A program made the position numbers and the translations under genes. From Candidatus Paracaedimonas acanthamoebae (GTDB lineage Bacteria; Pseudomonadota; Alphaproteobacteria; Caedimonadales; Caedimonadaceae): DNA of 32,000 nt. The stretch covers positions 1,690,348-1,722,347 of the forward strand of contig CP008936.1 of the NCBI GenBank assembly GCA_000743035.1. Direction: 5' to 3'. The notes under the pieces were generated by a model that searched no databases, was not told the DNA's origin, and saw only the letters and a list, made by a program, of their open reading frames with translations. Shown one piece after another: positions 5,777 through 26,289 of the stretch (the first letter of the stretch is position 1; each line of letters opens with the position of its first letter).

Positions 5777-6294
5777 CAGATGATTCTCAAGATCCTTGGA
5801 AAGCTTATTTGCGTGAGGTCAAAGCGCTCTCTTTCCCTGCGAAAGTTGAAAAAAAACCTCAAAAAGTTCACCTACGGGATCGACATCCGCTTAAAGACTT
5901 TTTAAAAGAAGTTCCTTTTGAAAATGTTTCACGTGAAACATTTTTGAATAACAAGAAGGCTCATCTTCTTTCTCGCAAAAGGACAAGAAATGCAAAAATT
6001 GAGCGAAAGCTTGATCTTCATGGGCTCACGTTAAAGGAAGCCTATCAAGAACTTTCCATTTTTTTATGGAAAGCTTCCCACCAAGGTATACGTATCGTTC
6101 TCATTATTACAGGGAAAGGAAGAGGTTCCCGCTCTTCCGATAAAGAAGAAAAACCACGATTGAATCTTAAAGAAGCTGTTCCTTCTTGGGTGCAAGAACC
6201 CCCGTTGAATACTTTAGTGGGTTCTTGGTCGAAAGCCCCCCAGGAACATGGGGGAGATGGCGCCTTATATGTTTTTTTAAGGGCAACCCCCTGA
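5773..6294 (+). CDS. Smr domain-containing protein
   Basis: C-terminal Smr domain (LDLHGLTLKEAYQELSIFL...RIVLIITGKG). ATGA start/stop overlap with mltA. It carries one copy of the palindrome in frame. Confidence 0.8.
   Translation: MTDDSQDPWKAYLREVKALSFPAKVEKKPQKVHLRDRHPLKDFLKEVPFENVSRETFLNNKKAHLLSRKRTRNAKIERKLDLHGLTLKEAYQELSIFLWKASHQGIRIVLIITGKGRGSRSSDKEEKPRLNLKEAVPSWVQEPPLNTLVGSWSKAPQEHGGDGALYVFLRATP
5921..5944. repeat. palindrome family copy 1: AAAATGTTTCACGTGAAACATTTT (24-bp perfect palindrome), inside the smr CDS
   Basis: Read directly and symmetry checked base by base. Translated in frame as ENVSRETF. Confidence 0.95.
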
Positions 6295-6353
6295 GATAAA
6301 TAACTCAAAGATACACAAGGCACTATTTACCCTCATAAAATCAAAAGGTTATT

Positions 6354-6381
6354 TTAAAATGTTTCACGTGAAACATTTTAA
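6354..6381. repeat. palindrome family copy 2: TTAAAATGTTTCACGTGAAACATTTTAA (28-bp perfect palindrome), between convergent smr and VOC genes
   Basis: Read directly and symmetry checked base by base. Confidence 0.95.
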
Positions 6382-6420
6382 CGACTTGATAAGGAAAAAT
6401 AAAAACAGAAGTCTTTTCAA

Positions 6421-6846
6421 TTAGCTGGAGAGCTTAGTGGCAAAGCTCCAAGAATGACCATCAGGATCCGTGACCTGAAAAAAACGATCGCCCCAGAATC
6501 CATCATTAAGCTTAACAATGAGCTGGGCACCTGCGTTGAGAGCTTGTTGACAGAGAGAATCCACATCTCCACAATAAAGATAAAGCGTGATAGAAGGAAA
6601 GACTTTATTCGTGATAGGAGCTTTGGATGGCCCCTCAAAGGCGCCTTCAGGCGCAAACATAATTAATGCATCATAAAATTGCATTTCCACGTGTTGAATG
6701 AACCCTTTCTCATTGCGGGATGGTTCATTTGCAAGCTTAAAACCAAAAGCATGTTGATAAAAATCAAGAGCTTTTTGAGCATCACGAACAGTTAAATAAG
6801 GAATCAAAGTTGGAGCGTAAGGAGGCTTAAAACCTGAAGTTATCAT
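6421..6846 (-). CDS. VOC (glyoxalase/bleomycin-resistance/dioxygenase) family protein
   Basis: VOC-like pattern (LIPYLTVRDAQKALDFYQHAFGF ... FWGDRFFQVTDPDGHSW). The ORF extends to 6906, but the ATG at 6846 has an AAAGG RBS and gives a typical 141-aa size. Confidence 0.75.
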   Translation of the reverse strand: MITSGFKPPYAPTLIPYLTVRDAQKALDFYQHAFGFKLANEPSRNEKGFIQHVEMQFYDALIMFAPEGAFEGPSKAPITNKVFPSITLYLYCGDVDSLCQQALNAGAQLIVKLNDGFWGDRFFQVTDPDGHSWSFATKLSS

Positions 6847-7028
6847 GGTATGCCTTTTCATAAACAATATATCTTTTACTTTAAGACAAAATAAAAAAAT
6901 ATGCAATCTTCCTATTTAAAAAAACGCTATAAAATTTAATTTTATTTAAAAAGGTTTACTCATATTGCGCTATGCGCGGTAAAAGGAACGCGAAGTTTCT
7001 TTTATGAGTTCCTCCTGCTCTTGCAAAT

Positions 7029-23629: not shown

Positions 23630-24634
23630 ATGGGAAAAAAGATTTTATCATGGGTTGTTATTATTTCACAGGTCTATGCGTCTTGTGCACAGGCCACAAG
23701 CACCTTGGTTGAGCAGGAGCAAAAAGGATCTTCAACAGCTCGTATTGTTCCTCAAGGAATTTCACCTATTCCTCCTGAGAAAAGTTTAACCTCTTCTGTT
23801 AAGAATAAGGTTGAGTGGAAAGAGACAGGCATTGATGTCACTACCAATTCTTGTAAATGGGATTATCAGCTGATCAGCAAAGAAATTCCGATTGTTTCAA
23901 ACACACCTTTTGAACTGGACTTTGAAGTTTGTCTTAGGCACGGCGGCTTTGGTGTGAAATTTCTCTCGCAAGATCGAAAGAAATTTCTAGGTGCTAAGTA
24001 CTATCAAAAACCTGGCCTTGTTAAAGATACGCTCAAGCTTCCCTTTGGAACCACTGATGAAAGTGTCTACCTTATTTTTACAAATAATCTACCAGAGGCA
24101 GGTGTATCTCACTTTATCATTAAGAATTATACCTTAACTCAGTCGCCTCTTTCTCCTGAAAAAATCCTCACACCCTTTTCACCTCAAAAGGTTGAGCGCA
24201 CAGGTCAAGGAATTGAGGTCACCACCAATCCTTGTAAATGGGATTCTCAACTGATCAGCAAACCCATTCCCATGACATTAGCCGCTGCTCCTGAAGTGTC
24301 CTTTGAGGTTGATCTCAAAAAAGGTGGATTTTCTGTAAGGTTTCTCTCCCACGATCAAAAGAAATTCTTAGCCTCTAAGCACTATCAAAAACCCGGCCTT
24401 GTTAAAGATACGCTAGAACTTCCTGCTGACACGACTGAGAAAAGTATTTACCTTGTGTTTACGAACGCTCTCCTAGAACCAGGCGTGTCTCATTTTGTCA
24501 TTAAGGATTATGTCCTCACACAAAATGATCAATCCTATCCAGATCATCTACTTGCCTACTTTCATCAAAGAGAAGGGAATAAGAATATAAAGATGCTCAA
24601 CAAAGGTCACCAAAAATTGTTTGAAGTAGAATGA
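23630..24634 (+). CDS. secreted hypothetical protein built from two tandem ~127-aa modules
   Basis: Signal peptide MGKKILSWVVIISQVYA. Modules at aa ~45-171 and 172-298 align residue for residue (TTNxCKWDxQLISK, GGFxVxFLSxDxKKFL, YQKPGLVKDTL, GVSHFxIKxYxLTQ). Confidence 0.6.
   Translation: MGKKILSWVVIISQVYASCAQATSTLVEQEQKGSSTARIVPQGISPIPPEKSLTSSVKNKVEWKETGIDVTTNSCKWDYQLISKEIPIVSNTPFELDFEVCLRHGGFGVKFLSQDRKKFLGAKYYQKPGLVKDTLKLPFGTTDESVYLIFTNNLPEAGVSHFIIKNYTLTQSPLSPEKILTPFSPQKVERTGQGIEVTTNPCKWDSQLISKPIPMTLAAAPEVSFEVDLKKGGFSVRFLSHDQKKFLASKHYQKPGLVKDTLELPADTTEKSIYLVFTNALLEPGVSHFVIKDYVLTQNDQSYPDHLLAYFHQREGNKNIKMLNKGHQKLFEVE
23762..24523 (+). repeat. intragenic tandem duplication, 2 x 381 nt (23762..24142 and 24143..24523)
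   Basis: The period of 127 codons was measured from aligned residues (V61/V188, C75/C202, G129/G256). Long near-identical nucleotide runs occur, e.g. cttgtaaatgggatt and ggccttgttaaagatacgct. Confidence 0.8.
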
Positions 24635-24730
24635 TAAATAAAGCACTCAATAAATATTTTTGTGCTTATTTCTCAATTTATTAAGGTGTAGTCGAGATAA
24701 AAATATTAAAAAATATAGAGAAGAAACAAT

Positions 24731-26251
24731 ATGGTCGCGCGCATTAATACTGTCGCTTTCCAAGGGATTGAACCCCTTGCCATTGATGTTCAAGTCCAAA
24801 TCACAACGGGAATGCCATCTTTTTCAATTGTTGGGCTGCCCGATAAAGCCGTTGCTGAATCGCGTGAAAGAGTGCGCGCGGCGCTTCACTCTTTAGGGCT
24901 TGCTTTGCCTCCCAAGCGCATCATAGTCAATCTCTCACCCGCAGATATTCAAAAAGAAGGTAGCCATTATGACCTGCCGATTGCTTTGGGGCTTTTGGTG
25001 GCCTTGGAGGTGTTGCCCTTTGAAGAAGTGCATCGTTATGTAGCTTTGGGCGAACTTGCTCTTGATGGTCGGATTTCACCAGTTTCTGGCGTTTTACCTG
25101 CTGCCCTTCATGCCTCAAGCCAGAGTCAAGGCCTGATTTGTCCCGAAGCCTGCGGAAAAGAGGCTGCCTGGGCTCCTGATATTGATATCTTGGCACCTTC
25201 AAGTCTGTTGTCCTTGATCAATCATTTTAAAGGCCTTCAAATTTTGCCTCAACCCGCACCCGGTATGAGAGAAGATAATCAAAGTGCTTTCGACCTTATC
25301 GATGTGAAAGGGCAAGAAACTGCCAAGCGAGCCCTCGAAATTGCTGCGGCGGGAGGGCATAATCTTCTCCTTATGGGGCCACCTGGAGCCGGAAAATCGA
25401 TGCTTGCGGCGCGGTTGCCGGGAATTCTTCCGCCCCTTGAGCCTGAAGAAGCTCTTGAAGTCACTATGATTCATAGTATTGCAGGAAAACTGCAGGAAGG
25501 GACATTGATTAAGCAAAGACCTTATCGCGATCCTCATCATTCAGCGTCTCTGCCGGCTCTTGTGGGGGGTGGGTTTAAGGCCTTGCCGGGCGAAGTAACG
25601 CTGGCGCACCGGGGTGTCTTATTTCTAGATGAATTGCCTGAGTTTTCACGAAGTGCCCTTGAATCCTTGCGTCAGCCTCTTGAAACAGGGCAAGTGACCA
25701 TTGCGCGCGCGAATGCGCATATTACCTATCCCGCGCGGTTTCAACTCATTGCTGCCATGAATCCATGTCGGTGCGGGTATTTGGATGATGTGACCAGAGC
25801 TTGCTCTCGCGCGCCGAAATGTGCTGTTGATTATCAAGCAAAAATTTCTGGTCCTCTATTGGATCGCATTGATTTTCAGGTGTTTACCCCGGCTGTCAAA
25901 CCTTTAGAGCTCGCTTTACTGTCAGGAAAAGAATCGACAGCAAATGTGGCTGAACGGGTGTCAAAAGCACGTTGGCATCAGCGTCAACGGTTTTTAAAGA
26001 AGACACCCAACAGTTCAAGTCGCGTGAATGCCGAAGCGTCAGGAAAAGAACTAGACGTTATTCTTAATCTCGAGGAAGAAAGTCAGAAGCTGCTCAATCA
26101 AGCTGCTGAAAAACTTAAATTTTCAGCGCGTAGTTATCATCGCCTTCTTCGGGTGGCACGGACAATTGCCGATTTGGAGGAAAGTGAGATGATCCATAAA
26201 ATTCATATGGCGGAGGCTCTTTCCTTAAGGCTTGATAGCGCTTCTATGTAG
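24731..26251 (+). CDS. comM: YifB/ComM family Mg-chelatase-like AAA+ ATPase
   Basis: Lon-protease-like N-domain (INLSPADIQKEGSHYDLPIALGLL), Walker A LLMGPPGAGKSM, Walker B VLFLDELPEF, and the ComM Cys cluster NPCRCGY. Confidence 0.92.
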   Translation: MVARINTVAFQGIEPLAIDVQVQITTGMPSFSIVGLPDKAVAESRERVRAALHSLGLALPPKRIIVNLSPADIQKEGSHYDLPIALGLLVALEVLPFEEVHRYVALGELALDGRISPVSGVLPAALHASSQSQGLICPEACGKEAAWAPDIDILAPSSLLSLINHFKGLQILPQPAPGMREDNQSAFDLIDVKGQETAKRALEIAAAGGHNLLLMGPPGAGKSMLAARLPGILPPLEPEEALEVTMIHSIAGKLQEGTLIKQRPYRDPHHSASLPALVGGGFKALPGEVTLAHRGVLFLDELPEFSRSALESLRQPLETGQVTIARANAHITYPARFQLIAAMNPCRCGYLDDVTRACSRAPKCAVDYQAKISGPLLDRIDFQVFTPAVKPLELALLSGKESTANVAERVSKARWHQRQRFLKKTPNSSSRVNAEASGKELDVILNLEEESQKLLNQAAEKLKFSARSYHRLLRVARTIADLEESEMIHKIHMAEALSLRLDSASM

Positions 26252-26263
26252 GATTTAAATGGG

Positions 26264-26289
26264 TAAAATGTTTCACGTGAAACATTTTA
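26264..26289. repeat. palindrome family copy 6: TAAAATGTTTCACGTGAAACATTTTA (26-bp perfect palindrome), between convergent comM and the ankyrin-like gene
   Basis: Read directly and symmetry checked base by base. Confidence 0.95.

Follow-up and report, generated by a model that had tools for sequence, protein, structure and literature searches.

Chromosomal parS and related ParB-binding sites

The closest described counterparts of the element analyzed here are chromosomal parS sites, the centromere-like loading sites for ParB in the ParABS system. In a review (PMC7022226), the universal chromosomal parS consensus is TGTTNCACGTGAAACA, and the 16-bp palindrome TGTTTCACGTGAAACA itself is given as the parS of the alphaproteobacterium Hyphomonas neptunium. 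The present analysis concerns six copies of TGTTTCACGTGAAACA in a stretch of 32,000 nucleotides of contig CP008936.1 of Candidatus Paracaedimonas acanthamoebae (this whole stretch is hereafter called the window). All six copies are exact matches to the consensus, of which TGTTTCACGTGAAACA is the perfect-palindrome form. The same holds with respect to the consensus tGTTNCACGTGAAACa that covers the Spo0J sites of Bacillus subtilis and the parS sites of Caulobacter crescentus and H. neptunium.

We consider it almost certain that the six palindromes are the chromosomal, origin-proximal parS sites of a Holosporales-type alphaproteobacterium. Such a parS cluster is a well-known textbook element and not a new kind of element. 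The assignment is based on identity with the parS consensus, origin proximity, conserved positions in relatives, and linkage with parAB both in relatives and across bacteria. An earlier note on this DNA had proposed, as one of several options, the site of a dimeric DNA-binding protein. This was essentially correct, ParB being a dimeric helix-turn-helix protein, but parS was not named.

In several respects the window sites behave as chromosomal parS sites do elsewhere: they are multiple, they lie within tens of kb of the candidate replication origin (oriC), and some parS sites are intragenic (in gidB/rsmG in relatives of the window). Moreover, the relatives have a parAB operon nearby, and their ParB carries the parS-specificity residues. 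There are also differences. All six window copies are perfect, whereas many species mix perfect and degenerate sites; four of the six are lengthened to 24-28 bp by an A4/T4 flank; and parAB lies outside the window. A literature search found no study on parS in Holosporales. The sites provide a handle on chromosome segregation in these obligate-intracellular, poorly studied bacteria.

Two other kinds of sites are related to parS. The Noc-binding sites (NBS) of Firmicutes are likewise 16-bp palindromes for a CTP (cytidine triphosphate)-dependent clamp protein of the ParB family. Each half-site of an NBS departs from that of parS at positions 1 and 6, and the window sequence is that of parS, not NBS. 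In addition, NBS are distributed over the chromosome away from the terminus, and Noc is confined to Firmicutes. The parS sites of plasmids and secondary chromosomes (e.g., gTTTATGCGCATAAAc of Burkholderia chrII) are also palindromic loading sites of ParB-family proteins, but these are replicon-specific and have other sequences, whereas the window type is the universal one of primary chromosomes and lies beside an origin with DnaA boxes.

Extrapolating from established ParABS biology, a ParB dimer would recognize each 16-bp palindrome of the window via its helix-turn-helix domains. The parS-bound ParB would then bind CTP, shut into a clamp, and slide onto the flanking DNA, and the multiple sites together would form a single large origin-proximal partition complex. 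ParA would move this complex, which usually loads SMC as well.

Six exact copies in the window

The 16-bp core TGTTTCACGTGAAACA occurs at 5925-5940, 6360-6375, 7029-7044, 9514-9529, 21378-21393, and 26269-26284. When each copy is extended for as long as the palindrome is still perfect, copies 1 to 6 reach 24, 28, 16, 26, 16, and 26 bp, respectively, and are listed below at that extent (no strand is assigned to any of them).

Candidate parS copy 1, 5921..5944: 24-bp perfect palindrome within smr, read in frame as ENVSRETF
Candidate parS copy 2, 6354..6381: 28-bp perfect palindrome between two convergent genes, smr and a glyoxalase-like open reading frame (ORF)
Candidate parS copy 3, 7029..7044: 16-bp core alone, with flanks aaat and ttct, between two co-directional genes, the glyoxalase-like ORF and the first of two LysR genes
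Candidate parS copy 4, 9509..9534: 26-bp perfect palindrome in the 754-bp gap that separates the second LysR gene from the co-directional hslU
Candidate parS copy 5, 21378..21393: 16-bp core with A4 on the left flank only, in the divergent start region of lppC-like and yraN
Candidate parS copy 6, 26264..26289: 26-bp perfect palindrome between two convergent genes, yifB(comM) and the ORF at 26373-27398

These positions and lengths are exactly those reported in the earlier note, including the four copies of 24-28 bp. No additional copy was found in the window when up to three mismatches were allowed. Dinucleotide-preserving shuffles of the window gave a mean of 0.17 matches and never reached six (0 of 100), which bears out the view of a genuine dispersed element not due to chance. 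The gene map also agrees with the previous placement of five copies at gene boundaries (two convergent gaps, two co-directional gaps, and one divergent start region). Since parS acts as double-stranded DNA wherever it is placed, copies may be found in gaps of any gene orientation and also within genes, where the site forces the peptide (N)VSRET(F).

Copies 1 and 5 had both been described as lying inside coding sequence. For copy 1, which is in smr, this is the case; for copy 5 it would hold only if yraN truly started at the ATG at 21346, and the site would then fall within its first 16 codons. Copy 5 is located 23 bp upstream of the likely start of the lppC lipoprotein, MKSCF (MKSCFKAF...LTSC). 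The longest ORFs on both sides, lppC-like (20219-21415, minus strand) and yraN (21346-21801, plus strand), overlap across copy 5, where they read LFHVKHF and NVSRET, respectively. This overlap arises because the longest ORFs were taken. In the lppC ORF, the lipoprotein signal peptide begins at M21 and LFHVKHF belongs to the upstream extension, and in the yraN ORF the match to the YraN family begins at residue 28.

The two peptides VSRET and FHVKH had been suggested to recur in alphaproteobacterial proteins. We found ENVSRETF in Smr homologues, QNVSRETF in the GidB of relatives, and LFHVKHF in the extension of the lppC ORF. Identification of the palindrome as parS accounts for these peptide footprints, both in Smr and GidB and in spuriously extended ORFs.

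A larger mobile element was also tested as the source of the repeats. Beyond ±6 nt, the flanks of the copies are unrelated (13-40% identical between copies, versus 26 ± 8% for random pairs), and miniature inverted-repeat transposable elements and insertion sequence ends were therefore rejected.

Distribution of the palindrome across bacteria and linkage with parAB

The identical 16-mer was searched in one genome per species, with at least 120 stretches retrieved. Among the matches listed, it is present in Actinomycetes, Clostridia, Bacilli, Bacteroidota, Spirochaetes, Planctomycetes, and several classes of proteobacteria, so that the previous guess of a widespread element turned out to be right. 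In the literature, 27 papers contain the 16-mer in their full text; again among the matches listed, they overwhelmingly deal with ParB-parS segregation or the related Noc protein.

To examine the association with ParABS genes, parB, parA, and gidB were translated from a related contig (L122) and searched against stretches that had been fetched by DNA pattern alone. Among 120 metagenome stretches matching the 24-mer AAAATGTTTCACGTGAAACATTTT, 59 contain a homologue of parA, parB, or gidB (57 contain parA or parB), and the parS site is usually 100-300 bp from parA. When the 16-mer without flanks served as the pattern, parA or parB is present in 51 of 120 genome stretches among the matches listed. 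The retrieved stretches have an average length of 6-7 kb, and parAB occupies about 2 kb of a megabase genome; thus, the linkage is far beyond chance, and the motif and parAB are associated in genomes across bacteria, as is expected of parS.

These data bear directly on the third option of the earlier note, a lineage-specific genome-wide signature in the form of an inverted pair of DNA-uptake sequences or a repetitive extragenic palindromic (REP)-like element. The window does contain a short palindrome in exact repeats, all but one of the six copies lie at gene boundaries, and a gene often annotated as comM is present. A sequence found in so many phyla, however, is not lineage-specific, unlike an uptake sequence or REP, and about half of the pattern-retrieved stretches contain parA or parB. 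Moreover, the window lacks degenerate copies, unlike REP families; one copy is inside a gene (smr), whereas REPs occur solely outside genes; and the copies are grouped next to the candidate oriC. The ORF annotated as comM, which had been taken as a hint of uptake, encodes a YifB-family Mg-chelatase-like ATPase; it says nothing on DNA uptake and is no evidence of competence. Based on the cross-phylum spread, parAB linkage, lack of degenerate copies, and origin clustering, the uptake-sequence/REP explanation was ruled out, and we assign it a negligible probability.

Another possibility is that the palindrome serves as an operator for some transcription factor distinct from ParB, which would read the CACGTG center and co-regulate the flanking genes. 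Its perfect dyad symmetry, the location of copy 5 in a divergent promoter region, and the presence of two LysR-family genes between copies 3 and 4 would fit such a role. LysR boxes have the form T-N11-A, unlike the motif of the window. Most copies are at gene 3' ends or intragenic and not in promoters, the flanking genes are functionally unrelated, and the sequence is exactly that of the ParB site and co-occurs with parAB across bacteria. An operator of this kind is therefore highly improbable.

Conserved sites and ParB in relatives

The closest relatives of the source genome belong to Holosporales ("Caedibacter sp. 38-128"-like; one Smr cluster is named "Caedibacter sp. 38-128 / Holosporales bacterium"). 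In a BLASTN comparison of the window with 120 genome loci, no close relative appeared among the matches listed, and the parS sites alone gave matches. The Smr protein of the window has nine homologues at 64-78% identity, in all of which ENVSRETF is invariant, and it is absent from more distant ones, as selection on a DNA site would produce.

Exact parS sites are conserved at orthologous positions across the related contigs L121 to L126. A site within smr, at the position of copy 1, is present in L121, L122, L124, L125, and L126, and relatives also have one just downstream of smr, as is copy 2 in the window. Sites comparable to copy 4, in the gap that adjoins hslU toward smr, were found at L122:12176, L125:2911, and L126:10866. 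The site at L125:12283, which is 23 bp upstream of lppC and has flanks similar to those of copy 5, is the orthologous copy. In addition, relatives have an exact parS in the first codons of gidB, where it gives the reading QNVSRETF mentioned above.

The stretch from smr to hslU (window 6295-9848) differs in gene content among relatives, in which the corresponding regions (L121:10532-15338, L122:10529-12677, L124:10529-17867, and L125:2568-3026) contain LysR genes, unassigned ORFs, a CrcB gene, or nearly nothing. Every relative has one to four intergenic parS sites here, and the parS sites of this stretch stand at the borders of the variable genes.

In relatives, the locus has the gene order parB-parA-gidB-rho-hemJ-hemH-hemE-coaE-dnaQ-secB-tim44-mltA-smr, and parB-parA-gidB is located about 4-6 kb to the left of hemE in four syntenic relatives. 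The left end of the window cuts into hemH, which shares 79% identity with the hemH of a relative; together with the synteny, this places the expected parAB about 3-4 kb beyond the left edge. We infer that the source genome has its own parAB immediately to the left of the window and that the ParB encoded there would bind the six sites.

The ParB encoded by L122 matches Caulobacter ParB (PDB 6T1F) with E=3e-66 and carries the GERRWRAA motif. Its recognition region, TQEDLAKSLSKSRSHIANTLRLLNLP...TAGHARALL, aligns with Caulobacter residues Q162, K171, S172, R173, N178, T179, G201, and R204, and KSRSH...AGHAR is aligned with KSRSH...AGHAR of the Caulobacter protein, the motifs that hold R173 and G201. 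According to Jalal et al., R173 and G201 are parS-contacting residues that show absolute conservation among ParB orthologues. Therefore, judging from the overall match and the specificity residues, the clade encodes a ParB of the parS-reading type.

The cluster may have more than six members. In the relative L147, whose SdhA is 93% identical, parS sites are present on both sides of sdhCDAB (L147:734 and L147:5715). The window has no parS upstream of sdhC, unlike L147, and the second site flanking sdh would map about 0.3 kb past the right end of the window.

Some observations weigh against the assignment as parS. Neither parA nor parB is among the genes of the window, and the cognate ParB is deduced from the gene order of relatives whose proteins are 64-79% identical. 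Besides, the conserved A4/T4 flank lies outside the classical 16-bp definition of parS, and the standard model gives no account of it.

Candidate replication origin

The six parS candidates form a cluster on the right arm, 3.9-24.3 kb to the right of a candidate origin of replication, that is, at the origin-proximal distance typical of parS.

Candidate oriC in the hemE-coaE gap, 1872..2151, no strand assigned: 280 bp, 70% A+T, with DnaA boxes and a GC-skew switch

All three perfect DnaA boxes (TTATCCACA) of the window are within this gap (2025, plus strand; 2045, minus strand; 2136, plus strand), and a box with one mismatch is present at 1921. GC skew is negative to the left of the gap and positive to the right. 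The equivalent gap in four related contigs shows the same skew switch and a cluster of perfect DnaA boxes, and an origin beside hemE is the usual arrangement in Alphaproteobacteria. The hemE-coaE gap is thus a strong oriC candidate on sequence grounds. The main value of identifying the parS sites is one of annotation, in that the window can be marked as an origin-proximal centromere region and the sites aid the placement of oriC in this gap.

A/T flanks and the terminator question

Within the window, AAAA (or TTTT on the opposite side) adjoins the core in 9 of 12 half-flanks, while the intergenic frequency of that 4-mer is 3% (P ~6e-12). The relatives have AAAA in 36 of 42 half-flanks. For comparison, 177 parS sites of unrelated genomes were examined: whatever the GC class, A is enriched only at the two positions that adjoin the core (0.54 and 0.46), and the full A4/T4 flank is present in only 4 of the 177 sites. 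The metagenome contigs had been chosen for one extended site, and only their other, unselected sites were counted; in these, the frequency of A is 0.80 and 0.81 next to the core and 0.56 and 0.48 at the next two positions outward.

It seems that a preference for AA-parS-TT is general among bacteria, with the clade of the window at the strong end, and these data suggest an effective parS site of roughly 20 bp across unrelated bacteria. The A-rich -1/-2 flanks in unrelated bacteria point to a DNA-level property of the ParB site. To our knowledge, the AA/TT preference is not part of the textbook 16-bp definition of parS. The extension is a small refinement of a known element.

A possible explanation of such flanks is transcription termination, and a bidirectional terminator was another option of the earlier note. 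The window copies do resemble rho-independent bidirectional terminators in their order of A-tract, palindrome, and T-tract. They differ from these in a stem with only 2 G-C pairs, in not being called by a terminator scan, and in the occurrence of the element in coding sequence as well. The folds range from -4.7 to -11.7 kcal/mol, and the palindromes do not provide the stable G+C-rich stem-loop with a U-tract at the 3' end that characterizes an intrinsic terminator. Copies 3 and 5 have no T-tract and fold at -6.1 and -4.7 kcal/mol, respectively, no better than shuffles. A bidirectional intrinsic terminator was consequently rejected as the primary function, given the weak stem, the absence of any scan call, the T-tract missing in two copies, and the intragenic copies.

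A weaker version would have the intergenic parS copies double as weak bidirectional terminators or ParB-bound transcription roadblocks, with A4/T4 serving as a U-tract either way. In line with this, the other four copies fold into hairpins of 11-14 bp with an ACGU loop followed by U-runs (-9.1 to -11.7 kcal/mol; z -3.9 to -5.2), and the flank is far above composition. Copy 6 is 18 bp past the stop codon of yifB(comM), and no other plus-strand terminator was called between them. The separate GC-rich terminator noticed earlier near copy 6 is indeed present at 26333-26360; it is on the minus strand, belongs to the minus-strand gene, and is 44 bp from copy 6. On the other hand, none of the six copies is called by the scan, and the A/T flank is retained in coding copies (smr in the window; gidB and smr in relatives), where termination would do harm. 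The generality of A-rich -1/-2 flanks at parS sites of unrelated bacteria also speaks against a terminator role. Our literature search found no paper on parS as a terminator. On balance, we regard such a double role as unlikely.

With the copies taken as parS, a further proposal concerns the extent of the site. The functional ParB site of the clade might be the extended 24-bp palindrome AAAA-TGTTTCACGTGAAACA-TTTT, selected even in coding sequence, either through a ParB or clamp-loading reading of the A-tracts (minor-groove shape or bending) or through a terminator/roadblock double role that insulates the partition complex from transcription. We put this forward only tentatively.

A scan of the window at Rfam gathering thresholds and a tRNA scan gave no match, and the palindromes belong to no known RNA family.

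Other genes of the window

The window begins with hemH (partial), hemE, coaE, dnaQ, secB, a Tim44-like gene, mltA, and smr. These are followed by the glyoxalase-like gene, two LysR paralogues, hslU, hslV, and a HIT protein gene, and then by an RP005-like 1107-aa oxidoreductase, an AmpD-like amidase, and three ORFs without family match. The right part contains lppC-like, yraN, a BON/OsmY-like gene, gshB, an unassigned ORF, yifB(comM), another unassigned ORF, and sdhCDAB.

The two LysR genes are arranged in tandem (7281-9094, minus strand), and over 298 residues their products show 75% identity; the stop codon of the upstream gene overlaps the start codon of the downstream gene by one base. The pair represents a recent tandem duplication. 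The relative L122 has one LysR gene at this site.

ORFs of 243, 522, 334, 341, and 147 aa at 17784-20111 (minus strand), 23630-24634 (plus strand), 26373-27398 (minus strand), and 31029-31472 (plus strand) have no NCBIfam match and may encode lineage-specific proteins of this intracellular clade. The 1107-aa product of 12177-15500 (plus strand) is a fusion that resembles the "glutamate synthase beta / 2-polyprenylphenol hydroxylase" of the Rickettsia RP005 type. It scores 821 bits, under the 1072-bit cutoff of NF005128, and its gene is beside the HIT gene in all relatives.

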